Source: Cycas panzhihuaensis (Eukaryota; Plantae; Cycadophyta). From it: a stretch of 64,000 nucleotides of DNA. Position numbers and translations under genes: made by a program. The notes under the pieces were generated by a model, which was not told the origin of the DNA, did no database searches, and worked only from the letters and a program-made list of their open reading frames with translations. The stretch spans positions 95,239,741-95,303,740 of the forward strand of contig CM041465.1 of assembly GCA_023213395.1 (NCBI GenBank). The letters run 5' to 3'. The first letter of the stretch is position 1; the number at the start of each line of letters is the position of its first letter. Of this stretch, positions 15,681-40,184 are shown one piece after another.

Positions 15681-15779
15681 TCATAATGGCTATACTCAAA
15701 GAGGAAATTTATAAAAAGGAAGAGGAAGACAATGGCAGGATTTCTTTGAAGATAGATATTTTTTTTTTTAGAGGAAGAC

Positions 15780-16815
15780 AATGGCAGAATTTATAAGTTT
15801 ATTTTATTATGTTCTTATCTATAGCTATTCTAATTGGCTTGTGTTGTAAATACAAAACATTTTTTTTTTAAATTCTTCTATTATCTTTACCATTCCTTAA
15901 ATATTCTCAATGGTTGTATGTAATTGTGCAAAATACTTTTTAGTAAGCATGTTTTAGCTACTAAAGATTTCATAAGGTCTTATCATATTAGTTTGTATTA
16001 GGAAGTTATTCTAGATAGAAATTTATGCTCAACTATATCTTTATAATAAAAGTATCAATGCTCCATTCTTATATCATTATAATGTAGTTTCTCTAGGAAT
16101 AAATAAAATATCTTCATTTATTCTTCAATCCATTATGAAGTTATTAGGTGGTTTGATAGTGGATGGGTTATTTTACTTAAGAACTTGAGATAAATTATAC
16201 ATTTAAGTTACTATATTACATGTTCTTTTTAATAGTCTCCCTAAAAAACATTGTTGAAAGTCATGTGAATGTATTCTAAGAAGTGTTAGGTTACATATGT
16301 TACTTGATCTTGGTTTGTTGAGGGTATAAAATCACACTTTTCATTCTATTTATTTATGTTAGTGAAAGATTTTGTGAGAGGCTAGTAACTATGATTGCAA
16401 GTAAGTTGGCTATGATATCATCACTTTTGTTTCTTTTCCTTTTGTTGTTCCTTATATGTGTTGGTGTTAATAAGAGATTTTATGAAGAGCTAGTATTTTT
16501 TACCATAAATTAATCTATCACAGTGCGATTCTTTTTGCATTTGGATTATCATTTTACTAGAGATCTTTGCCTACTAGCTAGTCTTAGGCAAATCAAGACA
16601 TTGATATATAATATAGTTAGATTCATGCAATAGATAGAAATAGTGGAGGGTTAAACTTATTTCTAATAAATTAACTTCATAAGGGTCATTATACCTAATT
16701 ACTAGTATAATATACTTTAGAGTTCTATACTTTCTTTATGTTGAGCCTTTGAACACGCAAACTAATAATCCAAAAGGTAACTTGAATAGAGTGTAAGAAA
16801 TAATTTAAGTAGCAA
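15780..16815 (-). repeat. Dispersed repeat C, copy 2
   Basis: Collinear with 41950-43015. The minus-strand frame reads KLPFGLLVCVFK...RYNDPYEVN with stops. Confidence 0.85.
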
Positions 16816-17129
16816 CCAAAAATTAGTAGCTATATTAGGGATGAAACAATCTAATTAAATTTCAATTTAAGTATCCATGTATATATTATTTTATTTTTTG
16901 TATAGACATTTTTTTAAAATTCTACTCTTTTGGAAATAAAGGATTAGATCAATAAACTAGGAGGCCTATTAATAATCTCAGGATGGTTGAAGAGGTATAC
17001 AAAGAAAAATTCTATTCAGACTAAGAATATTTAGAGCAAAACATTTTAGCATATTATAGAGACATTCTTCCCTAGATTCACAACAATCTTTTAGATCTTA
17101 GAGGTCAGTAACATGAGCTATTTAACAAG

Positions 17130-17620
17130 GCCCTAGAGGTCTATCCTAAGTTTAGTGGAGACATGATGATTATATTAGAACATGTAAAAATATTTTCTAT
17201 CACATGTAACTTGCTTAGAATCATTGAGCCTAATTTAGCCATTAGATTGTATGTTTATTCATTAATTGAAAATGCATCTACCTAAGCTTTATTCATTGCC
17301 CTATTCTTCCATAAGAAATTAGGAGGTTTCAATGTATGCATTCAAAACTAAATATGCTAGTAAGAAGACTCTTATTACACTCACATAAGCATTATACATA
17401 ATAAGGAAAGGAGTTAGATAAAGCACCACATATAATATTAAGTGATTTAAGAAATATCTAAATCAATCTAATGCCAAATACATACTTGCATAAGACATTC
17501 TAATCGAATGGTTTTTGAATGGTCTTGATCTTGAACCCATAATGATGATGATTTTCAAAGAACTAAATAGTCCCCAAGTTGCTAAAGTAATTGCTATAAA
17601 CCTTGAAGTAGTGATGGAGA
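17130..17620 (+). pseudogene. Tat-type gag relic
   Basis: EVYPKFSGDMMIILEHVKIFSITCNLLRIIEPNLAIRLYVYSL resembles PEVPKFDG...PTEHVRSFSMVC...ILMKLFLRSL in the gag of the central Tat element. Confidence 0.75.
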
Positions 17621-18344
17621 GATAAGGAATAAATTCTTTTCTTTCTTAAACAAATCTAAGAGAGGAGAATCCTTCACTAAATTCACATGTAGGGGAAAAT
17701 AATTTAGACACAATCAAAAGGCTAAATGAGAAGTTGTATTATTAAATGAGTAATGCACATAATTTGAATTGTTACTAGACTACATTAAGATTATGATTAA
17801 GACTTTAATACTAGACCATGTAAATCATTGGAAGATTTATGAAAATGATAAGCAAATCTTTCCCTTTATTCAAGAGCAAGAGGAATTTGTAGACATAGTA
17901 ACTACTACTAAAGAAACTCATGTAAGTGAAGCAGTTAATGATATGATTTTAAATAAAGATCATGTATAGTTTGAATCTAATAAAATCCCTAAAAGGATGA
18001 TGATTTGTAGCCATTAGTTGATTCTAATGATGTAATTAAATAAAGAAGCTAGTCCCTTAGCCAACAAAGGGTTATTATTAAATTTCTTAAGAGATCTATT
18101 TTTTTTTTCAAAGTAACCCAAGATAATATTTCAGTTACAACCATCATATAATTGATGCATTCTCCATCAATAATAATTTTAAGACCTGTAATAAACAATA
18201 AGATAATGAAAATGCTATCCTCATAGAAATCATGGAAGATCTAATCGATTTGGGAATATGCACAATTTAGACTCAAGTTGAAACTAATGATCAATTATTC
18301 ATAGAAGAATTAGAATATTAAATAAATTTAGAAGGATAAATTCA

Positions 18345-18720
18345 ATGTAGGAGATGTAATTTGTTGGAGTAAAATCTAAAAAAGGAATAAGAGTTAGTAT
18401 CATGCTATAATCCTCTAATGGTGAGTGTTTTCCTTATGCATTTAATCTAACATTTGAGAATAATAATGGTGTAGCTAAATATGAAATTTCAATCCTTAGA
18501 CTTCAAAAGGATTTGTATTTATAAGTTAGGTTATTATAAATCTAAAGATATTCAAAACTAATTATAAATCAAATTACAAATATTAGTTCCATTGAATATA
18601 ACTAGTTAAAAGGGTATAGGTAGAAGATTTATAATATCTCATAACAATTTGAAACAATTGTAGTGGAATATATTCCTATGGAGGATAATCAATTAGATGA
18701 ATCCCTTGTAATGATAGCCT
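18345..18720 (+). pseudogene. Degenerate archaeal-type RNase H (aRH) of an old Tat element
   Basis: *EM*FVGVKSKKG...YAFNLTFENNNGVAKYE...RYSKLIINQI...EYIPMEDNQLDESLVMIA matches the W.M.FDG / TNN.AEYE / GDS.LII.Q / HIPR..N..AD.LA pattern, with decay. Confidence 0.8.
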
Positions 18721-19759
18721 CTTTTCTTAATGTAACTCATGGTGCTATGTATAAATCAAATTTTATTTAGTTGATCACCAGATCCATAATGCTAGATAAA
18801 GTAAATCAATGGCAAACTTGTAAAAAAGATGAGCTTATCTTTCCTTTCATGCAAGAAAATGAGGATTATATTGATATTATGACTATCAATGAGGAGTTTA
18901 TAGGCTATAAAATTGTCATTGAAGGAGATTAGGCATCAAAGAAAGTTTTAAGTGCAATCTTAAAAGAAAACTCAATTTAGCTAAAATTAATTAAAATTCT
19001 AAAGGGCACAAATTATTTGGATCCATGGTTTAAGTCCAATGATATATCAAATACTAAAATAATTCAATAGGAACCTTTAGAAATGATGATTCAAAAATTG
19101 GATCTATTGGTCTAACCACTAAAGTTGGTAAAGGAACAAGCTTTTTGTAAGTTAGCAAGTAGTCTAACATATAAATCTCTATAGATTGAAGGAAAACAAG
19201 ATGAATAGGGAATATCAGCAGCTGATTTGTATCTACTTCAAGGAGTTTATAATCTTGAACAATCACACCCTTACTTACATTATATGATTCTATACTTAAA
19301 GAGTGATTTTTCTCCTAAGTTATGTGATGAAAAGAAAAGGTAGTTTTTAAATTTAAGATCTAAACTTGAGATTTTGATTGAAGGATTCTTATATAAAAAG
19401 ATATATTGCCCATATTTGTTCATACATGGAAAGGAAATTTTCATGCCTCATGTGTTTTGTAGTTGGTAGTTTTTGAAGAGTATATTTCAAATCATGGATT
19501 ATTTTTATAAACTTAGGGGTGTAGATGGAAGAGTGCTATCAATCTTTGTTGATGAGCCATATTTTCACTTCATTTTAGTCATGTCATATATATAATGAAT
19601 TAAATCAAAATAAGAAGTTACTTCAAACCACTTGTTGGGGGATGATCTAAAGTAAGGAGTCTGATTTTACCCCTTTAAAGTTTAACACTAATGATTTCAA
19701 GACTACATGTTGATAATAATGAAGTAAGAAATATACGTAGAAGTCATTTTTTATAAGGA

Positions 19760-21150
19760 ATATATGAACTAGTAAGTTTGAATATACATAATGAAGAGAA
19801 GATTAATGAATATAGTTACATTGACATGGGTCCTTTCTTAATCATAACATTGATTATTAGGATGAGTAAGGTGTAAGACAAAATGTTATAGGATACATTA
19901 TTTATGGGAATGAAGGATTAAATAAGATAAGTTTTATATAAACACTCACAATATAGTCTTCCCATAAAAGCATTTCCCCATGGAAGGATATTGTTATAAA
20001 GTATTTCTTAAATAGATGGAGTTTTATAGGAAATTTTTTTATGGGATTGATATTTTTAGGAGAATAATTTATAGGGAGGATGATTAACAAGAGTTGCCCT
20101 AAATTGAAGACAAATAAGAAAGAGATGTCCCATGTAGAATTTTCTATATGAGTGGCTTCCCATATAAAAGGCTATCATAAAATGAAAACATTGTGGGATA
20201 CATATATATGATTTTATATTTTTATAATTATAAAGCTCTATAAAAGGGGATTAAATACTTATAAAGTGAAACACTCATGGAATAGGATCCCCACAAGTAT
20301 ATAAGGTTGAATTAGACTTATTCTAGACCATTAATCAAGTGAGCACCATTAAATTATAAACACTAATCTTTAACACTGATTATAATTAAATCCTATTGGT
20401 TCATTTCAATGGAATATCACTAACATCATTGATATTAGAATAAATATGATTTGACATACAACTTGTAAGAAGCAAGCACATGATGGTGAGGTTATTGAAT
20501 CATAGATTGGCCATGATACACATTTTAATTCACATAATGCATGTCATAAGTATATTTAATTAATATAAAGTAAAGCTAGGATAGGGGGTAATTGCATAGA
20601 ATATGAAGTATGAAGGTGGAAGTGCTAATGATATGAATCATAGAGATTTTCATAGGTAGAATTTGATCAAGTCTACATATGATAATAAAGGATTGATAAG
20701 ATGCAATTTATCATGGATATTATGGTGAGCCTAAAATGTGTAATTAGAAAAGAGTTTATAATAGAGTAGCAAATTAATAATCAATTGTAGAAAATTAGAT
20801 TATATAAATTAAGTTAGTGCCTAATGTAAGGATGTTCTTTTATCTAGAATTATCGAGTAGAGGTTGTAATGTTTGGCATAGTAGAGTTAAACACACACAA
20901 GACATATGCCATAGAAGTAAAGCTAGAAAAAAGTGATGGCTACAATGAAGGTGAGATAAGGGTGGGACAAAGGTTAATGAAGTGTATTTTCATCAATTCT
21001 ACCCTCATATAACTAAAAGATAATAGGCTATCAAGTTATCTATGTATACCTAATAAAGACATCAACATTGATAGTTAGGCAATTAATTGCTAAAGTAGGG
21101 TTAATATAACTATTATAACCATCTCAATGATAATACTACATAATGAATAA
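19760..21150 (+). repeat. Direct repeat B, copy 2
   Basis: Collinear with 14215-15680. Confidence 0.9.
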
Positions 21151-23609
21151 TAATTCCTAGACTTATCATAGACTTTCCTCTTTAAATGATAAACTATCAT
21201 GGTCTAATCCAACTCATAACTTAGCCTTAATGAAAATTCACCAAAATGTTTCTAAGTAGATGAACACCTAATTGTCTATATGACTTGAATTTAGAAAGGC
21301 TTTTATATGTTATTTGTGTTAGAAAATATATGATAGGCCTAAGATTATACAAGATCCCTAATACTACATGAAGAGAAATACACATACCCAAGATCAAGAC
21401 TATGAATTATAAAGCCATATAAGTGAACAAATAGAGAACAAATATATACAAACATATAACATAATATACTTGTAGGAAATTATCACTTCTAAATTATATT
21501 ATAACAAACCAATATATATTTATAATACACACCACCTCATAGCTATCTAATCATATTTCAAGATCCATTTGATGAAATAATAACCTTTTACATAAAGAAG
21601 TGTCTATATTATGACCTACTAGTGCATATCAAAGGGGTAATTATATTAATTTAATATTCCCATGGGTTTAACATTATCCAATATTCCCCCCTTAATATTT
21701 AACCATGTTATATATCTACTTTAAACATGATGATGGATTTATATAAAATCTAAACATCTATTAGAGCATATACCCACAAGTCTTCTAAAATGACCTTTGC
21801 ATAAAAAAATTACTAATAAGCATTCAATGGTGAAGTGAAAAAACTAGCTAAAACTATGTGGAGGAGAATGAGAAATAATGCTTAGTTAATAAACATGATG
21901 AAGTAGCATCTAGTTATGATATAGGTCCTTGTATGATATATGATGGTGGTCGCTGACATGAAGTGCTAAGTTGTAGAAATAAAGGAAAAAGTTGTAGATG
22001 TTAGTAACCTGTACCATTTTGCATAGTGTTGAAGTTGTTCATGGATGAAGTAGAAGCAACTATAAGAGAGGAAGAAAATACAACCATGTGAATGGAAGAA
22101 GAGACACCCAAATCTTATATAGAGTAGATGACTGCCCATGGTGAAAAGGCTATTTGTAGGGTTTAAATGCTTTCCATTGATGATGCATATAATTTGTAGA
22201 AGAGAAAATAATTATAGTTATTGATGAAAGATTTGACCACCATAATGATGAAGAAGAGTATAAAGGATAAAGGTGCCCAACCATAAATGAATAACATTAG
22301 TAAAGGAAGGAGATTTATCCATAAAGAGGAGGGAATACCTATAGATATCTAACTAGGGAAAAGGAAGCCACCATACATCCACATGGAAGGAAAGCATAGT
22401 TGTAGCTAAAGGAGGGAATTTATTTTAATGTTAATGGGCAATTTATTTTTATGTGCTCCATCACTATGAATGGTGCTTCTCCATTCATTCCTCTATTATT
22501 ATAAGTTTGTTTGCAAAGTAATGTAGGATGACTTATATAGAATGGGTGATGTGAATATAATGAATGCATTAAATAAAATGCTCCACATTTAATGATATTA
22601 TAAAACTTCTAAAAATCTATTGGCTCTTCCAAAGATTTGCCTATTAGTCTTCTATAATAAGTTAATTCCATACTTTTAGATTTGATTCTCAAGTATTTCC
22701 ATTTCTATTAACCATTGGGATATCTAATAAAGAACAAAAAATATTTAATGAAAAGGTTTTGTGAATTGATTTTATCAACAGACAACCTTAAAATGAAACC
22801 CTTGGTTGATCTTATAACTTGAGTGCTTATAGGATTGATTGAAGAAAAATAATCTGAGAATTTATTCTTTCTTTTGTTAAATGATCTCACTAAGGGAGAG
22901 AATCTTGATTCTTAAACCAACCATATGCATAGAAAAGAAAGTAGTTGTGAGAGAAATATTTACAATAAGCATGATTGAAGTTTACTTATATGTTTTGGTA
23001 GCCTCTCTTGAGCACATAGTACGAGAATCCTACTATTAAAAAAATAACCTATACACAGGTGAAATTGAAGCTAAGATAATTTTTAAAGTTATGAATCAAA
23101 TTTAATTAGATTAGAATCTATTTTGAAATCTACAAACACCAAATTAGATAGGGTGGATTTTTTTTTTTTTGTAAGTTTAAAACTAAATTTAACCAGATTT
23201 GATATATTTTAAAGCCTACTATCAACTTAGAATTTTAGCCCTTGATCATATGCAATGATCAAATAAGCAGGTGCTACAGTGAAAAAGGTGCTTAAGCCCT
23301 CTATCCTTCAATTTCATTATTTTTAGAAAAGGTATTTGTATATTTTCTCTCATAACCTTTCATCCAAGAGCTTGATTTACAAATTATATGAACCAATGGG
23401 ATCATGATTTAGAAATGAAGAATTTGAGCTATGTTTTGAAGTATTTTGGTGTTGATTTGATTAAGTTATTTTAGTTTGAAATGGATGCACAAGAATCTAT
23501 GTGATGTATACTTGAGCAACTTATACTTATAGCCATGGAGGTTAATGTCATAATTATATTTGTACTTAAAAAGAATTAGTATTACTTTAAAGACTTTCTC
23601 TTCCCTATA

Positions 23610-23890
23610 CCTAAGTACATAGGAACAAACTATCATTGTTGGGTAGACAAAATAAAAAGTGTATTCATATATAAAAGGTTATGGGAAATTATTATTGATG
23701 GATATGATGTTCCTATTGATGAAGAAGGAAAAGAAAAACTTAAGGAGAATGATAATATAATAATAATAATAATTATTTTTTCCATATTAAATGAAGATAA
23801 ACTTCCTTCTTCCTATCATTTTCTCATTCTCGTAGTTCACCATGCTAGTAATGCCAAAGAAACCTAAAACATTTTGAAGAATACATCAAA
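23610..23890 (+). pseudogene. Copia gag N-terminal relic (DUF4219/UBN2-like), antisense to its host element
   Basis: PKYIGTNYHCWVDKIKSVFIYKRLWEIIIDGYDVP...NAKET*NIL matches the copia gag pattern NY..W..KM...L...LW..V..G / AK..W..L. It is followed by an acidic 120-aa ORF (23937-24299). Confidence 0.75.
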
Positions 23891-24635
23891 AGAGACTCCT
23901 AAGGAGATATAATGAGTTGTTAAAAAAGTAGTTAAAATGGTAAATAAGATTTTTGATGATTATGATATAAGTGATGATGATAATAGCACTTTTAATGAGG
24001 TTATTAATGAATATGTAGCTAACTATGAAGACTTTATTATTGAAGAATTTCTAGCTAGATATGAAGAAACCTTTGTTATTGAAGAACTTGCTATAGGCAC
24101 TAAAGATTCTACTCAAAAAGTTGAAGAAGTTCTTATAAGATATATTGGTCAAGAAGAAGAGTTTATACAGAATACTAATGCTTATTTTATAAATGATCCT
24201 AATGGTGTTGATTCTTCTATTAATGTTTTCCCTTTAATTTCTGATATTGATTCAATTGATACTAATTATTCATATATTGAGAAAAACGAAGACAAATAGG
24301 CTGTGATTAAAGTTATGATTGAAGATATAATTGATGTAAATTTTAAATTTCAAAATGTTGCTAGTATTCATGAAGATGATTACCTATAGAATTACCTACA
24401 GGATCTACATCATAATCAAATTAGACCAACTATGATTTACAATATTTTTCATATGGTGAAGAATCTATATTTACACACCAGAATAAAGAATATAAAGTTC
24501 AAGGATCATTACTATTAAGAGATACTACAACAAATACATCATTATAAGATTGATCATGATATTATATATTTTCTATTAAATAATTCAATAGGACCAATGG
24601 ATATCCTTAAGATGCTTATCAACGGGGTAGCATGC

Positions 24636-27188
24636 TGAAACGCTCGCTACGGGGCGGTGATCCTACGTCTAGCAAAGGGATATAAAAGGGCACTATGCTA
24701 ACTAAGCTAGGCCGTGAGGATCTCACCTCGTAGGACGTCCGTGCACCGGAGCACAGGTTTGGGACTGCAAGGTGCCTAGTTGCTTCCAGGTAGCCATGCA
24801 AAAACAAGGCCTTCCTACCCTTCGGATGGCCGGGAAGGAAAGGAAACGCCTTGCGCATTACGTCTTCTTAAGGCAATGAGAAGGCAACAAAGATAGGGGC
24901 AACTAATCCAATATGCAAGCAGATATGGTGAAAGGTGCAACAAAAGGGTGGCTCGAGTATGATACAAATAGGCTATCTATGCTATGCTATGTAAAGCAGG
25001 AAATAATGCAAAAGACGAATGTTTTCCCCTTTTATCCTTTATGTTCTTTTAACTTTTCTTATCTATTCAGACAAATGCATGAAAAAAGAAATAGCATAAA
25101 AGGAAACACGCGGGAAGCGAGGGGAATACCTGGATCCAGCATTTGAGTGGAGGTGTGGCTTGTCTCTCTAAGTTCCACTCCTTCTTTCTCCTTTCCCTGC
25201 GCATGCAAGGCCGATTGACGGTGGTAGAGGGGTCCACTTACCTCCCCTTGAGCATGCCAAACTAGATGAAATGAAAGGAACTGAAAAGAAGCTTGAAACT
25301 AAGAAAGAGGAGTACCATGCGGGAGCTAACCGGTAATGGGCTCGTCTCACGTATCACTCCGCCAACGCGATCCTACAAACAAGTAAGAAAGGCACCTTCC
25401 TCTCCGAAGGGAGGCCGCAAGATCTACTAAGAAATATATGTATATGTATGAACTGAAATCAACGGAAACTAAGATCTGAACTATGCATCAGAATGTAGCA
25501 AAATGAAATAAAAGCATATGAGAAACACTCACACTACCATATACCATAAAAACATACGAACTGGAACTGAGTATAGCCTCAGGATGGCTAACTCACCCAC
25601 CGGAGGTCCCCACGGAGTTCGGGAAGGAAACACCAGTTGGCAACAAGATGGAGGCGGGTTATCTTAGGCCGGTCGGGATGCCCTGACTAAATCCCCTAAA
25701 CTTCCTTAGCCCGTTCCTTAGGAAAGTGTGAGTGGCAAAGGGAAGAGGATAAGGGACAGAACCCTTGGGGAGAAGGACAGTAATGGGGGATGGAACCCTG
25801 CCTACCTCCCTCAAATCCTCGTGTACACCTTTACACCGGCTAACTAAGGAAAGAGTGAAAGAGAGCTTAGAGAAAATAGAGGGGCTCCAAAGAAGCACCA
25901 GGAAAGTACCTCTAGTCTAGAATAACACTATGGGAGAGTTGTGGCTAATTAGGATTACATTCATTTAGAAGCAAAAGAAATAAAACTAACAGAAAAAAGA
26001 AAGAAATGAACTATTTGCAAGTAAAGACAAGAAGTTGCAAATAAAAACCAAGAGGTTGCAAGTAAGAACCAAGAAGTTGCAAGTAAAAACCAAGAAGTTG
26101 CAAGTAAAAACCAAGAAGTACCTTGTATAGGGAGATTAAGCATGCACTTTCCCACTTGGAACAGCAGTAATAGATAACAAACAGAGGCTAGTTGTGAGTA
26201 GTTCTTGCAAGGGTATGGCTGAAGGAAGCTGCTTGTAAGTTTAGAGCTTTGGAGTTGACCCTTGAGACAGCTTTTTGGGTGAAGAAGACCCTTGAATCCT
26301 TGAGCACCTGCAGAAAGAATGGAGCTGGCTATGGAAAGCAGTAAGGGGCAGCAATGGCCCTACAAAATCCAACTGATGGCAGCCCACTTCACCTTCTCCA
26401 GTTACTGTGTATGAAGTTTTTTGTTTCTGTGTATTTTTTCTATGTAAAGTCTTTAAAATTCTTCTTGGGAGTTTGAAAAATGAGCAAAAAGTCCTGAAAC
26501 AATGGGAGGAAAATTCCCTTTATCCTCTGTTCACAGTAGGTGAATGTTGGGGATGTCAGGGCATCTCCAATCGAACGAAGCCACGTGGCAGTTTCGCGAA
26601 AAAAGCGGAAACTGTCGCGTGGTTCTCTTTTTTTAAATTTCAAACAGTCGTACTGCGGCAAACTCTGCGGTACCGCTAAGTTTACCACGGTATCAGCCTG
26701 GAATTAAAAAAAAAGAAAAATAAACAGAAAAATTAGGTTTTGAGGAAAAAACAAAGGCTAAACATGAGTTAGAGCAGCTGAGGGAATGCCCAGGCAGTGG
26801 GCAAGTACCCAAAACAATGCAAGGAGTCCTAACTAAGGCTTAAATCAGACTTAGGAAGGACTGCAACATAAGCAACATGTTGCAACAAGAGCAAATAAGA
26901 TTGATGGAAACATCTTAGAGGACCGTGGGGACACCGTGGGTGGCTGTGCGCCATACGGGGTATAGCATTTACTGAGGAATACCCCCGCTGTGAGTCGTCA
27001 TAGGCTGAAGGCATGCCGTAGGCATATGCATAATGAACAAGTAGAAAAGCAATGTGTGCAGGCAGGCATATGTCAAACAACCTACTCTAAATAACCTTAA
27101 TCAAACCAAGGCAAGAAAAGTAAGAGAATATACCTGAACAAACACAAGGCCGATGTGTCTCGAGTCCATTCCTAGTAGCTGGGAAACA
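24636..27188 (-). repeat. 3' LTR of the Tat element (2553 bp)
   Basis: Direct repeat of 35986-38536. Minus strand reads TGTTTCCC...GTTTCA. Confidence 0.97.
26015..26119. repeat. 21-bp tandem repeat (~5 units) inside the LTR; also at ~37363-37467
   Basis: Units GTAAAAACCAAGAAGTTGCAA. These explain the repetitive LATSWFL ORFs in the track. Confidence 0.92.
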
Positions 27189-27200
27189 CTGCCCCCTTGG
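27189..27200 (-). promoter_or_regulatory. Polypurine tract of the Tat element
   Basis: CCAAGGGGGCAG on minus, abutting the TG of the 3' LTR. Confidence 0.85.
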
Positions 27201-27270
27201 CAGCAGAGCCTCACTGCTCGGAAGCGTAATGTGATGGCAAATGCTGACAATCAAAAGTATGAGTAGCACA

Positions 27271-27273
<3 letters not shown>

Positions 27274-27327
<54 letters not shown>
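27274..27327. repeat. (TA)n microsatellite in the Tat 3' region, downstream of the aRH ORF
   Basis: Directly visible. Confidence 0.97.
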
Positions 27328-27330
<3 letters not shown>

Positions 27331-27586
27331 CAATAAAGAGCAGCACGTGGACCAAGGGTGTAAGCAAGTGTCGTGGTAGAACGCGTGGACAAGGGAGACG
27401 GAGACAAGGACAACGTAGGGGCTGCCTACGCGTCATCTAACATCGACCTGTAACTGGAATGAGCAAGTGAAAGGGGATGCCCCCATTATCGAAGTGCAAC
27501 GCGAAGTAGGAAGGCATTTAACAAATAGAGCAAGCAATCTAACTAACAGCAACCGGAGACTTGGGCACGGGCTGGCCAGGCAAGCC

Positions 27587-28009
27587 TTAGGAGTGGTTAT
27601 CTGGAAGAGGGAGGTGAAGCTCAAGGATGAGGCGGACGAGGCTGTCAGCCTCAGCGTTGAGGTGCTTAGGTATATGTTGAATATCCACTGACGAGAAACA
27701 AGCCAGAAGAGACCTGGCAGCAGACGCGAGGGTTCTCAGGTGAGGGCATCGCACCTGGTAAACCTGGGTGAGAAGGGACACCACGAGCTGAGAATCGTAA
27801 AACAACACGATGGGCCCGCGATGGAAGTGGAGAGCATTGGTAAGGGCCTCAATAACGGCCATGTACTCGGCTTCGTTATTGGTAGCCTCGGGAAGAAAGA
27901 CCCTGGAACGCAAGAAATCGTGTCCGGAGGGGCTGCGAAGAATCCACACAGCGGCGGAAGGCCCGAGGTTACTGCGGCTTCCACCATCGGTAAAAATGAG
28001 GAGAGACAT
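27587..28009 (-). CDS. Stand-alone archaeal-type ribonuclease H (aRH, RNase HI-like), 140 aa, intact
   Basis: IFTDGGSRSNLGPS (D), TNNEAEY (E), YDSQLVV (D), QHIPKHLNAEADSL (H, D): the full catalytic set. ATG start, uninterrupted frame. Confidence 0.93.
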   Translation of the reverse strand: MSLLIFTDGGSRSNLGPSAAVWILRSPSGHDFLRSRVFLPEATNNEAEYMAVIEALTNALHFHRGPIVLFYDSQLVVSLLTQVYQVRCPHLRTLASAARSLLACFSSVDIQHIPKHLNAEADSLVRLILELHLPLPDNHS

Positions 28010-28528
28010 GACTAGATACTAAGCTCTGGTAATCACACAAATAGCAATGAAAGTAAAAGAAAGACCCAAATGGCGAGGAAAAAGGTGGTCGAGAAGGGTA
28101 GGAGGACCTAGCAATGAGGTTACCCGAGAACAAAAGCAAGCAATCCGGCTACTAGCTAAAAGTGGGCGGAGAAAAGACGCCCTAGAGTGCCAAAGGTTGC
28201 CTTGGGAAGCAAAACATGCCCCCAGACGGGGGAGCATTTCCTTTGGGGACCCCAGGAGCGAGAAAGGGCTGCAAAAACAAGTCCAGGGCGGCGAAATGAG
28301 CCAAACGAGTATAAACTCGGGCACGCACGGGAGTAGCGCGTAAAACGATGCAGAAGGGCCTTGGCAAACCAGGGGATGGCACCCCAGGATCAGGACAGCA
28401 GCAGCGGATGAGATGTACATATATATGGTTTTGACAGGAAAGCACAAGCCTCCAGGGGGTCATATATAGGCTCACATGATTGTACCCCCCCTGCAAGGAT
28501 CCCGGCTTCCCACATGCACGATGTACTA

Positions 28529-28530
<2 letters not shown>

Positions 28531-28605
<75 letters not shown>
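28531..28605. repeat. (TA)n microsatellite between the integrase stop and the aRH ORF
   Basis: Directly visible. Short ATGTAAAT repeats also at ~28720-28750. Confidence 0.97.
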
Positions 28606-28610
<5 letters not shown>

Positions 28611-29164
28611 GGGTAATTGGAACCCCATTTTGACATGAAATGGTGTGTATCATGTATGATAGAGGTAGCATATATGATTTACTTTATAGATGAAAATGCT
28701 TGTATGTTGCAAATGTTTGTATGTAAATATGTAAATATGTAGATATGTAAATTTTTGTTGTTAATATTTAGTTGTAACTATGCATGTGTTTCCTTCCATG
28801 TATGGCCATATGTCTAACAGGAGCACACACATCCACCGTAAGTAGAGGTGATCTAGAGGTGTGAGGTTAGAAATAGAGCGGCATGCACGTCCACAGGGGA
28901 GCATAGCAGAATATTCGAAGGAAACGATAGGCAGGAGAATGAAGTAATGATACTCCACAGCGCCGTCCTAGTTGGGGGATGCCCAAATAGGAGGACAGAG
29001 GTTCCCAAGAGTGCACGGGAATGCGGGTTCCACAGGAGGAACCAGAAGAAGAAATGCAAATCCACCTTAAATTGCCATTCTACTCATGGTTGGGAGGAAT
29101 GGGAACAATTTAAAATGGTAGTTTAGGCTCGTTTCGGAGCATGGCGAAGAAAAGAGTGGAAAGA

Positions 29165-30400
29165 TCACGCGTAAAATTTCTTGAGGAACTTTCCGTTGAC
29201 CGCTTTCTCAAATTCCAAGCCGTCTAAGGTGGCGATCCTGTATGCGCCGTTATTGAGGCTTTCGAGAACGACGAAGGGGCCCACCTACTTGGGCCTGAAT
29301 TTGGACAAGCGATCGTAAAGATACTCCAATTTGAGGACGTGGTCCCCGGGACACAAAGGACGAGCATGAAGACGTTTGTCGTGTGTCCTTTGTAAGTAGG
29401 CTTTCGAAGTGAAGTTCGCTTGATAAGCCGTTAAATGCCTCTCATCCAAGGCTTCGAGGTCTAGGAGGCGAGCCTTATGAATAGACTCCTCGTCAATGAG
29501 GCCTCGACGAGAAACCCGAAGAGAAGGGATCTCCACTTCCAATGGGAGTATCGCCTTGGTTCCGTAGACTAACGAGAATGGGGTCATTCCGGTAGCCGTG
29601 CGGATGGAAGTGCGATAAGCCCATAGAGCGGAAGGGAGTTGGATGTGCCAGTCTCTTTGAGACTGGGCAATGGTTTTCTTCAAAATGCCAACGAGCATTT
29701 TGTTGAAAGATTCAACTTGCCCGTTCGCTTGGGGGTAATAAGGGGATGACGTCTTATGCGAGATCTTGAATTTCTCGCACAATTCGTCCATTTCCTTATT
29801 ACAGAAGGAAGTTCCATTATCCGTAATTAGGACATCTGGAATTAAAGCGGCAGATAATATCTTTGGTAGACGAATGTGGCTATCGTCTTGCGGGGTAGTG
29901 GATGTGGGATTGCCTCTGCCCATTTAGTGAAGTATTCAGTAGCAGTTAAGATGTATTTGTGTTATGCGGAAGATGGCGGTGATATAGCCCCAATGAGGTA
30001 TAAACCCCATTGAGAAAAGGGCCACGGAGACACGATATGGTGCAACGCCTCAGAAGGTATGTGAGAGACGTTGGCGTGCTCCTGACAACGCTGACATCTA
30101 AGAGCACAAGCGTGGGCGTCCTTGAATAAGGACGGCCAGTAATAGCCCATACGGAGGATCCTTTGGGCCATGGATTGGCCCCAAAAGTGGCCCCCACAGA
30201 TGCCATGGTGGCAATCGTAGAGTATTTGGTCCGCTTCGTAAGGGGCGACGCAGCGAAGCAGGATCCCATCGAAAGATCTCTTGTACAACACTTCATCTAC
30301 GAGGAAGTATTGCCTCGCAGTGGCGCGGATACATGACCTAACCTTGTTACTGGTTTCAGTCAGATATCGCACAATGTCGCCATACCACTTGATGTCGGCG
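29165..30400 (-). pseudogene. Tat integrase (disrupted)
   Basis: HHCC zinc finger (CHHGICGGH...GYYWP...CQRCQ), WGLYLIG (first catalytic D>Y), LITDNGTSF, QVESFNK, GPF motif, then ...NGKFLKKFYA* ending at 29165. Contains internal stops and a frameshift. Confidence 0.93.
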
Positions 30401-30420
30401 AGTGGGTGAGGAGAAGCATC

Positions 30421-31080
30421 TTAGACGGTCATAATAGACTCGTCCGAGAAAGAGTCGTCAACGGGAACGTCGCTCGCGTTGGGAATGGCGGCATCGGCTA
30501 ATTGCTCCGCTACTATCATTCCCTTCTTTGACTTCCTGTTAACGACTTGTAAGTCGAACTCTTGCAGCAGGACGGCCCAATGTCCCGCCCTACCCGTCAA
30601 GTTCGAACGGGTAAGTAAATAACGCAAGGGATCGGATTGGACGATCACCTTGGTTGTATTACCAAGCAAGTAATGCCGAAACTTTTTGGTCGCATGGACC
30701 AAGGAGAGGCACTCCTTTTCGGCGGGGGGATAGTTTAATTCAGTGGCAACGAGAGTGCGGCTAATGAAATAAATGGCCCTCTCGGTTCCCGAATCGTCCT
30801 CCTGCACGAGCATTGCGCCCAGGAATTCATCGGTTGCCAAGGTGTATAGGATGAAGGGCCTATCAAAGCGAGGAGGCGCCAGCGTAGGGGCGGAAATGAG
30901 AGCTTCCTTGAGCCCTACGAAGGCCTTTTGGGTCTTGTCTGACCAGACAAAAGGGACTCCTTTCTTCAATAGGTTCATAAGAGGCTTGGCGTTTATGGCG
31001 AAATCTGCCAAAAAATGCCTCAAGAAACCAAGCCTGCCTAGAAACGACTTAATTTGTCGTTGGGTCCTAGGCAGCAGCAT
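30421..31080 (-). pseudogene. Canonical gypsy RNase H domain, catalytically degenerate
   Basis: FILYTLATDEFLGAML (Leu where TDAS has Asp), AEKECLSL, WAVLLQEFD. Passes directly to the integrase linker (WYGDIVRYL) with no aRH in between. Confidence 0.88.
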
Positions 31081-31122
31081 GTCAAGGATTGCCTTGACTT
31101 TTTCTGGATTGATTTGGATTCC

Positions 31123-32145
31123 TTATTGGGACACGAGGAAACCTAAGAGTTTGCCTGAAGTGACGGCAAACACGCATTTCAGCGGGTTTAGACTAACATG
31201 GTATTTGCAGCATCTCACAAAGATGGCGTGCAAGTCGGAGGAATGATGGGCTCTGGAATGAGAAAGGCCCATCATATCGTCCATGAAGACCTCCATCGTG
31301 TTGTTGATGAGGTCGTGAAGGATAAAATGCATGTCTCTTTGATAAGTAGCCCCTGCATTCTTAAGGCCAAAGGGCATTGCCTTATAGGCAAAGGTACCCC
31401 ATGGCGTAGTGAAGGCAGTCTTATGGCGGTCTTCAGGAGAAATCTGAATCTGGTTGTAACCGGAGAAGCCGTCCATCAAGGACATAACTTCGAATCTGGT
31501 CGTACAATCGATTATTTGATCGATGAAGGGGAGAGGAAAGTTGTCCTTAGGACAAGCGTTGTTTATGTCGCGAAAATCGACACAAATACGAATGGTCCCG
31601 TTCTTCTTAGCAACGGGAACGATATTCGATACCCACTTAGGGTAATCGATGGAAGAAATGAGTCCCGCCTCCAGAAGCTTCTCAACTTCCATCTTAATAG
31701 CAGCTGAAAGCTTCGGGTGAAGGGGACGCTACTTTTAATGCATGGGGCCAGCGTCAGGAAAGGTCGTAAGGTTATGCGTGACGATGGAGGGATCAATGCC
31801 CTTCATGTCCGAGTTGTCCCATGCGAATACATCACAGAATTCCTGGAACAGGAGGGTGTATTCCCTCACTTCGTCAGGAGTACATTCCGCTCCTACCTTG
31901 ATGACCTTGTCCGGGGCAAGGACTATGTCCTGAGTTGCCCCCATGCACATGGCATTCCCCTCCTCGAAATGGAGAGGGGCAAGATCAACCGAAAGGGAGG
32001 AAACAGAAGAGGGGATTGGGTCGGCTAATGGGGACCCAATCACTAAGACCTTCTGGTGGCCAAGCTTGTGGTGACCAGGAGGCAAACTCAGCATGGAACC
32101 AGCTAAGTGTTCCAGCAAAGCCTCATCGTCTTTGAAGTAGTCCAC
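31123..32145 (-). pseudogene. Tat reverse transcriptase (with frameshifts/stops)
   Basis: DVFAW..SDMKGIDP, WVSNIVPVAKKNGTIRICVDFRDIN.ACPKDNFPLP, DGFSGYNQI, MPFGLKNAGATYQR, FMDD. Confidence 0.95.
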
Positions 32146-33209
32146 CCCATGGATGACCTGACTGGGAATGGATGAGGCGCGGGATAGCGTGGGAGCGATA
32201 GGGACCCAGATGGCCCGAACTGCCCATCATCCCTAAGAGACTCCGAAGGAGAGTCAATGAGAGGTCCGTCGTAAAAAGCAAGAGGGAAACTCTCAACATC
32301 ATCACCTACGGGAGGTGATGGGACGGAAGAGCCAGGAGTGTGATGATCAACATGCGCAATGTCATGTGACATGTGAAAATGACCAGGCTCTATAACAAAA
32401 GGGGTCATAGGAGGAAACCTAGAACTAGGAGGATGCCCCGCACTAGTGCGGAGGAATGAAACTGGGTGAGGACGATCCTCATCCTCGCTATGGGACCCGT
32501 CGTCGTCAAACACGGTGAGATACCCATAGCTCCCGACACCAATGGGGGCAAAGCGCGTCAAACCTGGAGAAGAAGGTGTGGGATCTTCTTCTCGGTAAGA
32601 GGAATCGGGAATTCCAATGGAGCAAGCTGAGGCATGGTCAGAAGGGCGCTTGTTTCCCTTCGTATGGCCATGGCTTGCCTGGGTGGAAGGCCTGGCTGGT
32701 TTGGCGAGCGATTGCTCGTGGGAGACAACCTTCATTTGTCCATTATGGACAAATTTAAGTTGCCCCCAACGGGTAGAACACACGGCTCCCATTTGGTCAA
32801 GCCATGGTCGACCCAGATGCAAGTTGTAATCAATGTCAACATCGAGGACAACAATGTCAGTGACGATAGTCTTGTCCTCGAGGGTAAGAGGTATCGAGAC
32901 AGATCCTAAGGGAGTCTTCTCGCTACCATCACAACCCTGACAGCGCCATGGAACAGGTTCCAAGGCAGAAATGCCAAGCTCTTGCATAACACGCAAGGGC
33001 ATGGCATTGACGGAAGAACCGTTGTCCACGACGGTTCTTCGCAACGTACAATCAGGAGTATCTATGGTAATGGTGAAAGGGAAGTTCCATTGGCATTCCC
33101 TTCCACTAGATGCGGGAAGATCTCTAGGATCGAAAGAGATAACGGGTTCGCACCTTTGGGTTGTGCCCAAGGCATGAACAGACGCGTCATTCGATCCTAG
33201 AGCTTCCAA
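32103..33209 (-). pseudogene. Tat aspartic protease region
   Basis: VVDNGSSVNAMP...YNLHLGRPWL protease motifs in the 368-aa ORF. Confidence 0.9.
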
Positions 33210-33221
33210 GAGAAGCGCTCG

Positions 33222-35804
33222 CTACTTGGGGTAACTTCTCAAGACGTCCATGATGGACATCCCGGCAGCCACAATGAGAAGCTCTTTGACTATGGAGAAG
33301 GGCTTACCCCTCCCTGTGGGTTGGGTAAGGGCTCTCCTAAAGTTGAATCTACCAGGGTGGACGGGAATGCTCTTGGGAAGTGCAGGAATCTCCGGAGGAA
33401 CAGCTTCCAGAGGGGGATCGAGCTGCGAGGTAGATGTGGAGGCACCAGCTACCTCCTTCGTGGCTTGAGACCGGGTTAACTCATAAAGCGGAGTGGTCTC
33501 GAGCATTTGGATCACCTTCTTTCCCTTATTACGGGGCTGCGAAGGTGATGGAGCACGGCGGTCAGGGGAGCACGAAGGGGAAGATGACCTTCGCACACCC
33601 TTCCCTCTACCATGCGAAGGGCGAGAATCGGGAGACCTATCCCGATTCTGATTGTTCCTTTGCTAAACATCATGACCTTGTTCCCCATGTTTGGGGAACG
33701 GGTCTCTATGAACGGTCTGATCGAGGTTGGGCCTCGATGCCCGCCTAGGGGACGAAACGTGCAGCAGGGCGTCGCGCGGGTGCTGTGCCTAGCAATGCGA
33801 ATCGTCATGAAAACACTCCCCGTGGATGGAACACCACCTCTTCTCAAGGGGAGGATCGATCCTCCTTGCTTGAGAAGGTTGGGTGTTACCCCCTTTGGGG
33901 GGCATCGCACGAGAAGCTTGCTGGATTGGTTTATGGGAGGTCGGTGACGAAGGAGGTTAGAGTTTTAGCTCCTTCATCATGCGCTCAAATGAGCGAATAG
34001 CGGAGGTGAGGGGATCTAGGGTCCTCTCAGTCAGATGAGAGGTGGACCTAACAGGCTGCAAAGGTTTGGTTTCCTTCACTGGAGGAGGCGCCTCGCGATG
34101 TTGCAAGGGCTTAGGAGGTTTCTTGAGTCCAGCTTGGATCTCAATGGCCTCCAACGCCAAATACCTCGTAATCGTGGAGTCACATGTAGTCGCCCCCATC
34201 TTGAGGACTTCCACATGCACTTCAGGGTGAAGTGCATTGACAAAGAGATCTCGCTTCAACTCCTCAGGCAACGTAGCCTTGGTGGAGTGAAGAAGATCAT
34301 GAAAGCATCACACAAAGTCACGATTCATCTTGTCGTGACCTTGTTTGAGCGACAGAAGTGCTTTCATTCCGCTTTCGAATGGACGGGCTACGTTAAAATA
34401 GTTGACGAACTCATCCACCAATTGCTGGAATGAAGAAATCGAATGAGCGGGAAGGCGGTAAAACCACTTGAGGGTGTCGCCCTGTAAGGATCGCAGAAAT
34501 AGCTTCATAAGGATATGGTCGTAAGCCCAATAATTGATGCACACCATAGAGAAACTGCGTACATGCTCGGTTGGGTCTTGCGACGAAGTTCCATCGAATT
34601 TGGGAACTTCAGGAGGGTGAGGCGGCAGGTTAGTCCTTAGCGCCTCAATAGACAATGGCGTCAACCTATAGTCCATGAAAGGACGTGTCCTCACTTGGGC
34701 TAATGGATCGATGACCAGCAAAGGAATGGATGGGGGTGGTAAACCCATCCCTCCTTGGGGAAACGCCTCTTGTTGGAAAGGGGGTTGCAGGTAGACGCTC
34801 TGGAAAGGAGGTATGCTCCCTTGCGATGACGTAGCAATGGGAGTTGCGCTAGATGATGGAAACGACGGGTGAGGGACCGGGTTTTGCCCATATGGGCCAC
34901 TCGTAGGTGGCGCAACTCCATATGGGTGCAATGGGTCCACCCCGTAAGTAGGAAGATGGTTTCCCCTAGCTTGCCCCCAAGGTTGAGACGTGTAACCTGT
35001 GGGCACGTAAAGGGAAGGACCACCAGTAGAGCTTTGAACGTATGTAGGAGTAGGTCCTACATAGTTAACAACAGCAACGCTAGTAGGGCCTCGAGGCCTA
35101 CTAGGGAATGCATGTACCACGTTCGAAGGTGGCACATGCGTTTGGCTCGAAAACGTCATGCTAACCCTAAGTTGGGGAAAGGACATGCCACGAACGGGTC
35201 TGGAAGAAGTAGGACCTCGGCTAGAAGTAGGCGGCGCAACGCTTGCCCTGGGAGCCGGGGTAGACACGGCATAGGACGAGTGTGCGCGGGCGGAAGCATC
35301 AATCGTTGTAGAAGGCGCAGGGACGGATGAAGAAGATGCTATATTGCGTAACACTTCTTCAAACCATCTAGGGTGCGGCTGGCGGCGAGTTGTTCGAAAG
35401 TACTCGCTAATCGCCTCGACTACGTCGGCAGGAGGGGCATCCTCGTAGCCATACAAAGTCGACGGGATCTCGAAAGTAGGGGATCCCTCAGGACGCTCCT
35501 CGTAAGGCTCACCCGTGGGATGGCAAGTCTCGTGAGGAGCTGAATCTTCCGCTGTGTGAGCGGAAGGATGAAAGTCATCAGGATGGAATTGGTCATCTGG
35601 ATAGTAGATGGAATCATCGCCCCCATGGGCGGATTCCGGAATAGATGTAGGGAACTCTTGAGTTCCCGAAGTCATGGTATGGTAGGCCCAATCAGACGGG
35701 TAACCTTCCATTGTCGAATCGGGTTTCGACGACGGGAGGGAACAAGGCGATTGGTCTTCTAACAACGGAGGTAAACCTCGCAAGTGAAGCGAGAAACGTC
35801 GCAT
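33222..35804 (-). pseudogene. Tat gag (long Pro/Ser-rich N-terminus, capsid domain, CHHC knuckle)
   Basis: PKFDG...DPTEHV..F...MKLFLRSLQGDTLKWFYRLP..SISSF..L...F. The zinc knuckle WCSIHGECFHDDSHC (Cx2Hx4Hx4C) was read by hand at ~33792-33836. Confidence 0.9.
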
Positions 35805-35966
35805 GCAATGCCTTTGCGAGCGTTGTTAGAAGAAACAAAAGAGGGAAAGAGGAAAAGTGAAGCGTGCATGTTGGGGGTTGCCCAACTAAAAACACGGAAT
35901 ACGAAACTACCTAGAGGCAAGAACACTGATAAGAAGGGGAAGCGAATTTAGCTCCCTTACTGGTAG

Positions 35967-35984
35967 TCCCCAGTATGGTCGCCA
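35967..35984 (-). promoter_or_regulatory. Primer-binding site (tRNA-Arg type)
   Basis: TGGCGACCATACTGGGGA, 1 nt from the 5' LTR. It resembles the TGGCGAC....CTGGGGA Arg-type PBS of Ogre/Tat elements. Confidence 0.85.
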
Positions 35985-35985
35985 G

Positions 35986-38536
35986 TGAAACGCTCGCTAC
36001 GGGGCGATGATCCTACGTCTATCAAAGGGATATAAAAAGGCACTATGCTAACTAAGCTAGGCCGCGAGGATCTCACCTCGTAGGACGTCCGTGCGCCAGA
36101 GCGCAGGTTCGGGACTGCAAGGTGCCTGGTTGCTTCCGTGTAGTCAGTAAAACAAGGCCTTCCTACCCTTCGGATGGCCGGGAAGGAAAGGAAACACCTT
36201 GCGCGTTATGTCTTCTCAAGGCAATGAGAAGGCAACGAAGATAGGGGCAACTAATCCAATATGCAAGTAGATGTGGTGAAAGGTGCAACGAAAGGGTGGC
36301 TTGAGTACGATACAAATAGGCTATCTATGCTATGCTATGTAAAGCAGGAAATAATGCAAAACACAAATGTTTTCCCCTTTTATCCTTTATGTTCTTTTAT
36401 CTTTTCTTATCTATTCAGACAAATGCATGAAAAAAGAAATAGCGTAAAAGGAAACACATGGGAAGTGAGGGGAATACCTGGATTCGGTGTTTGAGTGGAG
36501 GTGCGGCTTGTCTCTCTAAGTCCCGCTCCTTCTTTCTCCTTTCCCCGCGCATGCAAGGTCGATCGACAGTGGTAGAGGGGTCCACTTACCTCCCCTTGAG
36601 CATGCCAAACTAGATGAAACAAAAGGAACTGAAAAGAAGCTTGAAACTAAGAAAGAGGAGTACCGTGCGGGAGCTAACCGGCAATGGGCTCGTCTCATGT
36701 ATCACTCCGCCAACGCGATCCTGCAAACAAGTAAGAAAGGCACCTTCCTCTCGGAAGGGAGGCCGCAAGATCTACCAAGAAATATATGTATATGTATGAA
36801 CTGAAATCAACGGAAACTAAGATCTGAACTATGCATCAGAATGTAGCAAAATGAAATAAAAGCATATGGGAAACACTCACACCACCATATACCATAAAAA
36901 CATACGAACTGGAACTGAGTATAGTCTTGGGATGGCTAACTCACCCACGGGAGGTCCCCATAGAGTTTGGGAAGGAAACGCCAATTGGCAACAAGATGGA
37001 GGCGGGTTATCTTAGGCCGGTCGGGATGCCCTGACTAAATCCCCTAAACTTCCTTAGCCCGTTCCTTAGGAAAGCATGAGTGGCAAAGGGAAGAGGATAA
37101 GGGATGGAACCCTTGGGGAGAAGGACAACAATGGGGGACGGAACCCTGCCTACCTCCCTCAAATCCTCGTGTACACCTTTACACCGGCTAACTAAGGAAA
37201 GAGTGAAAGAGAGCTTAGAGAAAATAGAGGGGCTCCAAAGAAGCACTAGGAAAGTACCTCTAGTCTAAAACAACACTATGGGAGAGTTGTGGTTAACTAG
37301 GATTACATTCATTTAGAAGCAAAAGAAATAAAACCAACAGAAAAAAGAAAGAAATGAACTATTTGTAAGTAAAGACAAGAAGTTGCAAATAAAAACCAAG
37401 AGGTTGTAAGTAAGAACCAAGAAGTTACAAGCAAAAACCAAGAAGTTGCAAGTAAAAACCAAGAAGTACCTTGTATAGGGAGATTAAGCATGCACTTTGC
37501 CACTTGGAAGAACAGCAATAGATAACAAACAGAGGCTGGTTATGAGTAGTTCCTGCAAGGCTATGGCTGAAGGAAGCTCCTTGCAAGTTTGGAGCTTTGG
37601 AGTTGACCCTTGAGATAGCTTTTTGGGTGAAGAAGACCCTTGAATCCTTGAGCACCTGCAGAAAGAATAGAGCTGGCTGTGGAAAGTAGTAGGGGGCAGT
37701 AATGGACCTGCAAAATCCAGCTGATGGCAGCCCACTTCACCTTCTCCAGTTGCTGTGTATGAAGTTTTTTGTTTCTGTGTGTTTTTTCCGTGTAAAGTCT
37801 TTGAAATTCTTCTTGGGAGTTTGAAAAATGAGCAAAAAGTCCTGAAAAAATGGGAGGAAAATTCCCTTTATCCTCTGTTCACAGCAGGTGAACGTTGGGG
37901 ATGTCAAGGCATCTCTAATCGAATGAAGCCACGTGGCAGTTTTGCGAAAAAAGCAGAAACTGTCGCGTGGTTCTCTTTTTTTAAATTTCAAGCGATCGTC
38001 AAGAAACTGCATCACAGAAACTCAAGCAGACTACTGTACCACTAAGTTTACCGCGGTATCAGGTTGGAATTAAAAAAAGAGAAAAATAAATAGAAAAATT
38101 AGGTTTTGAGGAAAAAACAAAGGCTAAACATGAGTTAGAGCAGCTGAGGGAATGCCCGGGCAATGGGCAAGTACCCAAAACAATGCAAGGAGTCCTAACT
38201 AAGGCTTAAATCAGACTTAGGAAGGACTGCAACATAAGCAACATGTTGCAACAAGAGCAAATAAGACTGACAGAAACATCCCAGAGGACCGTGGGTGGCT
38301 GTGCGCCATACGGGGTGTAGCATTCGCTGAGGAATGCCCCTGCTGTGAGTCGTCATAGTCAAGGCGTCTTAGAGGCACATGCATAATGAACAAGTAGAAA
38401 AGCAATGTGTGCAGGCATATGTCAAACAACCTACTCTAAATAACCTTAATCAAACCAAGGCAAGAAAAGTAAGAGAATATACCTAAACAAACCTGCGTCG
38501 ATGCGTCTCGAGTCCATTCCTAGTAGCTGAGAAACA
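35986..38536 (-). repeat. 5' LTR of the Tat element (2551 bp)
   Basis: Direct repeat of 24636-27188, followed by TSD CATGC. Confidence 0.97.
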
Positions 38537-40184
38537 CATGCTTTTAATCTAACCTAAATAAAACTACTCTTCTCGTAGTACATACACACTATCAATAGCT
38601 TTCTTTATATGCATAAGTTTAAATCATGATCAATAAGATCTACATCTTATAACCCTAATACACAAGTGTTCTCTTATGAGCCAAACTATCTATTATACCA
38701 ACTCATTCAATAAAACCCTCCTCTTTGATCACAATCACTTTATCATATGACATAGGAAATAATGACCTACTTGCCATAACATTAGCTTCAACACAGTGAT
38801 CGAGCCTACTTTATAAGCCTTATTCTCAAATATACATATAACGTCTATAAGTACACTAGTAAGACATGCATATAATATCCCAAAATAAATTAAAACACAT
38901 GGAGAACCTCCCTCGTATTTAAAATAACTACAACACTTATATTCATAACTAAAGTTTTAATGCTCAGGTACTAATATACTTTAGACTCATGACACCAACA
39001 TACTCTAGGTGCCTTACAAAATTATGGTTTATAAGCTTCCATAACATATAGAATATCTTTACTTAATAAATAGAATACCCCCATCATTGGTCATAAATAA
39101 GTATACATAAACAAATTCGGAATTAACACATTGATAGGTGGACGCAATCATAGTCTTTTAACCTAATTAGGGTCAAATTGGGCTTAAATTATAGCTCTAA
39201 TAAACCTAGCTCTAATACCACTATTAGATAATATATGATAGGACCAATATCATACAAGATCTTTGATATCAAATAAAAAGAAATATACATGTCCAAGAAC
39301 AAGACTATAAATTATAAAGTCATATGAATGAACAAGTAAACAACAACCTATATTTATAATACACACAAATGATATACTATATAAAAAATAATCACTTCCA
39401 AATTATATTATGATAAACTAATATATATTTATAATACACACAACATTGTGGCTATCTAATCATAATTCAAGAGCCACTTGGTCAACCAATGATCTATTAC
39501 ATAAAGAAATATATATCCTATTACAATAATCTAATATTCTCATGGGTTTAACATTACGCAATAATTTACACAGAGGAATTATTTATCCAAAGAAAATAAA
39601 AATAAAAATACATAGAAGTGCTTAATTAGTAACATTAGACCATATCATAGCATTTATTAATAAGACAACATATTAAATATATATTAAAAAAAATTTGTCA
39701 ACCAACTAAGCTACTTTTGATGGATTCACCATCCAACCTTTCATAGTCTTAAAGAGGAAAGTACCCCTGAGTTAGAGAATATGATATAAATGTAAGATTA
39801 TTAGTAATTCTCTCTTCACATAGTTCCTTTATAATCTATCCTATCAAGAAGATGTCTTAATAGTTACTACCATAGTATTTTTATTTTTATCTGATTTCAA
39901 GTCAGTTGTTGTAATATTTTCCTTAATAAAATGGTATAGGGTGCTAAACTCAACCTATGCACATCAAAAAATCAAGGAGAGCTTCAAAAAATCCAAGTTT
40001 TCTTACTTATTACTATAATCTTCAATCATTATTACATGCTTTTATTTCCTTATATATTTTCCTTGTACATCAAGATAAAACTAGAAATACCATGTCTTAT
40101 ATGGCTCACTATTAAAATAATCTTAATGGACTATCTTATTGTGTAACTTCATATCCCATACTACACATCCAATCATGAACAAGA

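Follow-up and report, generated by a model that had tools for sequence, protein, structure and literature searches.

We analysed a window of 64,000 nucleotides from the cycad Cycas panzhihuaensis (assembly GCA_023213395.1, contig CM041465.1, positions 95,239,741 to 95,303,740 of the forward strand), by which we mean the whole stretch of DNA, and found in it a full-length, disabled Ty3/gypsy retrotransposon of the Tat group (probably TatIII, structure #3) that carries an archaeal-type RNase HI (aRH) on an open reading frame (ORF) of its own, downstream of pol. The element occupies 24636-38536 (13,901 bp), and it and all of its features described below lie on the minus strand. Its ends are marked by TG...CA termini, by a 5-bp target site duplication (TSD) with identical left (24631-24635) and right (38537-38541) copies, by a primer-binding site (35965-35984) one base past the 5' long terminal repeat (LTR), and by a polypurine tract (27189-27198) adjoining the 3' LTR; the primer-binding site is putatively tRNA-Arg-like. 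The 5' LTR (35986-38536, 2,551 bp) and the 3' LTR (24636-27188, 2,553 bp) pair with 151 substitutions over 2,533 aligned bases (Kimura two-parameter distance 0.063, about 6%), which would place the insertion at about 2-14 million years ago if 1.3e-8 to 2.2e-9 substitutions accumulate at each site per year. Within each LTR a 21-bp unit is also repeated five times in tandem (26015-26119 and 37363-37467).

The Ty3/gypsy order of protease (PR), reverse transcriptase (RT), RNase H (RH) and integrase (INT) is present inside the LTRs, and Pfam matches run from Gag (weak) through RT, RT-RNase H, and integrase zinc finger and core to RVT_3/RNase_H on the ORF at 28009-27587. The gag and protease region spans 32230-35711, with 5 stops in the scanned frame; within it, gag lies at about 34505-34332 (weak Retrotrans_gag match) and protease at about 33340-32560, recognized by its similarity to P0329, a relative from the pine-linked clade discussed below. 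RT follows at 31126-31728 (Pfam RVT_1, E=2e-24), then the native RH at 30555-30945 (Pfam and alignment), which is catalytically degenerate and tether-like, and integrase at 29165-30234 (H2C2, core, and GPF motif), which has internal premature stops and one frameshift. A first-pass annotation of this stretch had described gag-pol as broken, and it is: the scanned path carries 11 in-frame stops and two frame changes. The frame change near 32210, between protease and RT, is limited to the window copy, while P0193, a relative 84% identical, and the pine-linked P0329 are in one frame there.

The native RH has leucine in place of the first catalytic aspartate, and aspartate occurs at this site in none of 137 aligned rows; degradation of the core was judged on this residue only. 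It leads directly to integrase, as the first-pass annotation had also noticed together with the missing aspartate, through a gap of 107 amino acids (aa) to the zinc finger that holds no aRH, and no Pfam match was found between PR and RT in the ORFs at 33221-32106 and 32226-31738. The same plan is seen in the intact relative P0334 (1,077 aa), which is composed of RT-RH-INT with an RH-to-zinc-finger gap of 106 aa, no aRH, and the same C-terminal end. Pol closes with TGA at 29165-29167, the stop after the GPF motif that had been called clean, although the window copy has an earlier premature stop within that motif (29285-29287). This end is canonical for a Tat integrase: among 92 longer integrase relatives, 55 of the 73 aligning to the last residues stop at most 5 aa from the same place, and aRH stands before INT in 53 and after INT in 0.

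Between the pol stop and the aRH ATG lies a non-coding spacer (28010-29164) of exactly 1,155 nt, the approximate length given before, with 10, 11, and 7 stops in the three frames, 19 upstream ATGs, and a (TA)n tract at 28531-28606; another such tract at 27274-27328 lies on the other side of the aRH gene within the element. The aRH ORF itself (27587-28009, 140 aa) is ATG-initiated and stop-free, and its identity as an archaeal-type RNase HI, correctly recognized from the outset, is indicated by Pfam (RVT_3, E=3e-19; RNase_H, E=2e-10), by the PDB entry 4e19 (E=1e-17), and by a residue alignment in which the DEDD core is present (D8, E48, D72, D122). The earlier claim that all five catalytic residues, D-E-D-H-D, are kept holds for these four acidic residues and fails for the fifth, which in archaeal-type RNase H is Arg, not His, according to the available text of PMC4408406. 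The window copy lacks this active-site Arg: it has Lys115, and likewise Leu15, whereas Arg and Pro occupy these two positions in at least 90% of 60 aligned relatives, and codon 115 differs in 86-96% of sister-copy depth. The overall layout proposed earlier, gag-PR-RT-dead RH-INT-stop, spacer, and separate aRH, is thus real.

What the window copy can tell about selection is another matter. Among 13 sense-codon differences between its aRH and the sister copies, drawn from 40 of 300 rows and biased toward conserved sites, 12 change the amino acid, Lys115 included. At the decay rate of the element itself, a frame of 140 codons should have taken 0.7-1.0 disabling events and the probability of none is 0.37-0.50, or about 0.32, calculated by hand, if the in-frame stop at 29964 is counted as well; pol too keeps stop-free stretches of 201, 233, 152, and 212 aa. 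Given these probabilities, the intact frame of the window aRH is no evidence of selection, and the contrast once drawn between an intact aRH and a broken gag-pol stands only in that the ORF is stop-free, which is no more than chance would give. As judged from its sequence, the window copy is dead throughout, and its aRH decayed like gag-pol.

The evidence for selection comes instead from sister copies. The stretch compared was present in 20 of the 23 runs listed (14 organisms, 12 studies), with 16,540-33,318 sister contigs per run aligning to 27340-28515 and covering spacer and ORF in 30 of 30 bins. At the aRH stop codon, 78-97% of sister depth has another stop codon, and none of seven listed indels falls inside the ORF, which is weak evidence given that these form about three clusters. 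For the selection test we used positions 27900-28070 in four further runs, with all 28 difference rows considered and the first 36 aRH codons covered. No variant reaching at least 12% was found at the aRH ATG, at Asp8, or at the in-frame TAG (28019-28021) that precedes the ATG by three codons. Three of the 24 coding rows are replacements by which the window copy stands apart from almost every other copy, and the other 21 are polymorphic; 16 of these 21, each at a third position, are silent, where the possible transitions predict 33% (p=5e-5; pN/pS 0.15), and outside CG/CHG context the silent share is 10 of 11 (p=1e-4). By this measure, aRH was under purifying selection in sister copies. Additionally, in three of the four runs, 8-15 more diverged contigs end their alignment at 28010, the base before the aRH ATG. 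The three closest proteins (67, 57, and 54% identical, among 1.84 billion representatives) all have Met at the same position, and in stand-alone RNase HI the first Asp most often sits at position 8 (23 of 57 representatives). The aRH ORF has the appearance of a complete RNase HI gene that was captured. Given the canonical pol end, the invariant ATG and upstream stop, and the silent-site bias, a separate gene is favored over a fusion, and the idea of a separate, selected aRH gene in a Tat element with a dead RH is supported at the family level.

In RT-RH trees, the window element and P0193 together form the sister group of a 16-member clade with Pinus taeda PITA_05732 (FastTree 0.99; 98.4/98; approximate likelihood ratio test 93.5). 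For the support of 98.4/98, row names were assigned by input order; P0227, which adjoined the window at low support in the first tree, was dropped later as a split hit, and P0107 did not pass the length filter. The pine-linked clade has no aRH between PR and RT (P0329) or between RH and INT (P0334), and its native RH is degenerate; since aRH is absent from the positions of structures #1 and #2, we assign it to structure #3 by elimination. Given that the window pol is only about 47% identical to this clade, the window element represents another family, which perhaps belongs to Tat I. In the aRH tree, the window aRH and its three relatives (0.98) fall among prokaryote-type RNase HI, outside a 62-member clade (0.997) that holds all 61 Pol-embedded aRH domains. 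This placement agrees with the 2015 report, in the portion available, that lineage III aRH groups with bacterial RNase H (PMC4408406), while the deep aRH phylogeny is described as unresolved in PMC10508981. Searches with aRH gave 100 matches, all at most 43% identical, among 5.8 billion proteins of near length, and 15 loci at 26-43% identity among metagenome contigs; P0334 gave no match among viral and prokaryote genome contigs.

The arrangement itself is documented, and the novelty suggested earlier did not survive comparison with the literature. Five Tat structures have been listed, among them post-integrase aRH as a separate ORF, which is common to elements of Pinaceae, Cycas, and Ginkgo (PMC10508981), and a 2026 paper, as far as its accessible text goes, terms structure #3 'post-integrase', draws it with a 'solo aRH' ORF, and calls the fused and separate reports controversial (PMC13468544). 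Across the available parts of these sources, TatIII, Tat lineage III, clusters Tat H and Tat I, and structure #3 are the same group (PMC6317226, PMC4408406, PMC10508981, PMC13468544). TatIII is defined by aRH after INT in the available text of PMC6317226, where the 39 REXdb elements have a 5-bp TSD in 92%, lengths of 12,682-17,270 bp, and tRNA-Arg in 64%. The window element shares with this group the GAG.PR.RT.RH.INT.aRH order, the solo aRH ORF, the degenerate native RH, a TSD (5 bp) and a length (13.9 kb) within the TatIII ranges (5 bp and 12.7-17.3 kb), a probable RT-RH placement, beside the pine-linked clade, and an aRH that groups with prokaryote-type RNase HI and not with that of Ogre and Retand. 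It differs in its LTRs, which at 2.55 kb exceed those of listed structure #3 representatives (0.2-1.8 kb), and in that no antisense PMD ORF was found, the four plus-strand ORFs of 89-106 aa in the spacer, 3' region, and 3' LTR having no Pfam match; such an ORF occurs in 18% of TatIII and is not obligatory. The layout is therefore already known, and the window copy adds a family, not a kind.

Other systems resemble the window element in part. Ogre and Retand (structure #1) have the same integrase C-terminus, a degenerate native RH, an archaeal-type aRH, and long LTRs, but their aRH lies in Pol between RH and INT (53 of 53 aRH-bearing matches) and forms a separate clade, whereas TatI and TatII (structure #2) have aRH between PR and RT, where the window has none. 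The 'pre-capsid' structure #4 of mosses and Selaginella tamariscina also has aRH as a separate ORF outside pol, but upstream of gag. Stand-alone archaeal-type RNase HI proteins (4e19, 3u3g, and Mycobacterium Rv2228c, 3hst) are similar to the window aRH in size, in the Met seven residues before the first Asp, and in the DEDD core, at 35-45% identity, but are cellular housekeeping genes with no retroelement carrier; 4e19 is presumably the Halobacterium RNase H1 and 3u3g LC11-RNase H1.

Reverse transcription needs RNase H. Given that the native RH is dead and aRH is selected, aRH likely supplies this activity, and we consider it probable, from comparisons of sequence, that the element is a disabled TatIII (Tat H/I) copy of a family whose separate 140-codon aRH is kept under purifying selection in sister copies and likely provides, as a free protein, the RNA-degrading step lost by the Pol RH. 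The family aRH would then be an active enzyme, made from an mRNA of its own, and would work inside the particle, cleaving the RNA/DNA hybrid on behalf of RT. Because the spacer excludes read-through and scanning, aRH needs its own mRNA or a splice: stop-codon read-through is ruled out by 10 in-frame spacer stops, and leaky scanning or stop-start reinitiation by the 1,155 nt and 19 ATGs in between. In the window copy INT and aRH happen to share a frame, for which the chance is 1 in 3. A longer aRH ORF via a 146-codon open stretch in the same frame (28459-28022) was also rejected, given that it has no Pfam match, is cut by the invariant TAG, and is interrupted in sister copies by indels of 1, 2, and 4 bases.

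A U-rich tract with CAG (28026-28058), which ends 16 nt ahead of the aRH ATG, is a candidate 3' splice site and gives a weak hint of splicing. The CAG at 28026 is the highest-scoring U-rich YAG, ranking first of 163 YAG sites in the 8.8-kb internal region and first of 31 non-coding ones; with three such sites near the ATG, this has a chance of about 1 in 10. Production of aRH from a spliced subgenomic RNA, in the manner of env, through this acceptor-like site is a serious possibility that falls a little short of even, and an internal promoter in the spacer is conceivable but doubtful. We tentatively propose, as a model that may well be wrong, that TatIII RNase H is expressed like retroviral env, from a spliced subgenomic mRNA with its acceptor 16 nt before the aRH start, the free RNase H being packaged with Gag-Pol. 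A complex prediction of thumb and native RH with aRH, run without alignments, gave a score of 0.00 and no verdict, and a literature search on the expression of a post-integrase aRH ORF found no paper, most subscription papers being outside its scope. There is some precedent for divided labor in Ty3 RT, an asymmetric homodimer in which, according to the available text of PMC5371799, subunits A and B divide polymerase and RNase H between two polypeptides; both Ty3 chains are the same Pol product, whereas in the window element RNase H would come from another gene.

Several observations weigh against a separate, selected gene expressed in this way. Inside CG/CHG context only 6 of 10 aRH polymorphisms are silent (p=0.06), and selection was seen on one 110-nt stretch, in contigs at least 80% alike whose sites are not independent events. 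No sister-copy contig runs across integrase, spacer, and aRH together. Two of the three shared Met residues are gene-caller starts and the third is internal, and the more distant relative P0348 (47%) begins 7 residues earlier. The trees hold no TatIII references from REXdb or the papers, and the pine-linked clade was labelled Tat H by elimination. The best donor candidate behind the primer-binding site (GTAAG, 35960) comes no higher than rank 50 of 418 when scored by weight matrix and was not accepted as a major donor. Finally, the available text of PMC4408406 describes lineage III aRH as C-terminal in Pol and refers to Ogre splicing, which raises the alternative that aRH is a C-terminal Pol domain, with an Ogre-like intron removing the integrase stop and spacer and joining INT to aRH in frame. 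Such a fusion would solve the packaging problem, and AG sites at 28019 and 28012 are possible acceptors, the former within the invariant TAG at 28019-28021. However, the canonical Tat end of pol is kept, as are the aRH Met and stand-alone size, the best acceptor (28026) lies upstream of an in-frame TAG that would stop a fusion, and there is no GTAAG/GTGAG-type donor between 31869 and 27214; we regard this alternative as unlikely.

A separate aRH could also be expressed and selected yet act outside the particle, for example on R-loops at the element's transcripts or cDNA ends, with a host RNase H serving reverse transcription. A free 15-kDa enzyme without an evident packaging signal would fit this alternative, and PMC10508981 itself raised in 2023 the question of how a domain encoded on its own ORF could function. 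The same study, however, reports that the native RH is degraded in each Tat lineage with aRH, wherever that is placed, and kept in lineages without aRH, a pattern that ties aRH to the RT step and makes action solely outside the particle very unlikely. A passenger status of aRH, as a gene fragment once captured that decays neutrally and looks intact by chance, suits the window copy, with its chance-level frame and predominance of replacements in the biased sample above, but is scarcely credible and largely refuted for the family, given the third-position bias, the invariant start, stop, and Asp8, and an ORF common to Pinaceae, Cycas, and Ginkgo elements (PMC10508981).

Elsewhere in the window, a plant L1-type LINE fragment (44481-46985, minus strand) has a stop-free RT and zf-RVT frame of 602 aa and, after it, an RNase H frame of its own (Pfam); this RNase H (44484-44888) showed no BLASTP relation to the Tat aRH. 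The RT of another LTR retrotransposon (63160-63546, minus strand) is heavily decayed, with 6 stops in 129 codons, and positions 3-566 on the plus strand have a weak integrase-like match to P0334 (24%, E=4e-5). Old direct-repeat pairs, 75-86% alike (47757-53327, 53765-58126, 14508-21105, 15939-43014, and 6800-59472), are probably decayed LTRs of other elements, and 56452-56579 is a perfect 64-bp tandem duplication.

Our data bear on the dispute over fused and separate aRH in the 2023 and 2026 papers, and argue for a separate, selected gene in the window family, with the site at 28026 as a place where RNA data can decide how aRH is expressed. If the env-like model is true, the reverse-transcription machinery of TatIII, an LTR retroelement, would be encoded by two genes, with the ratio of RT to RNase H set by splicing, and its free RNase H could serve sister lineages with a dead RNase H. 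If free RNase H in particles were confirmed, this family would offer a natural model of what preceded the fusion of captured RNase H to RT that took place in retroviruses and Ogre/Retand.

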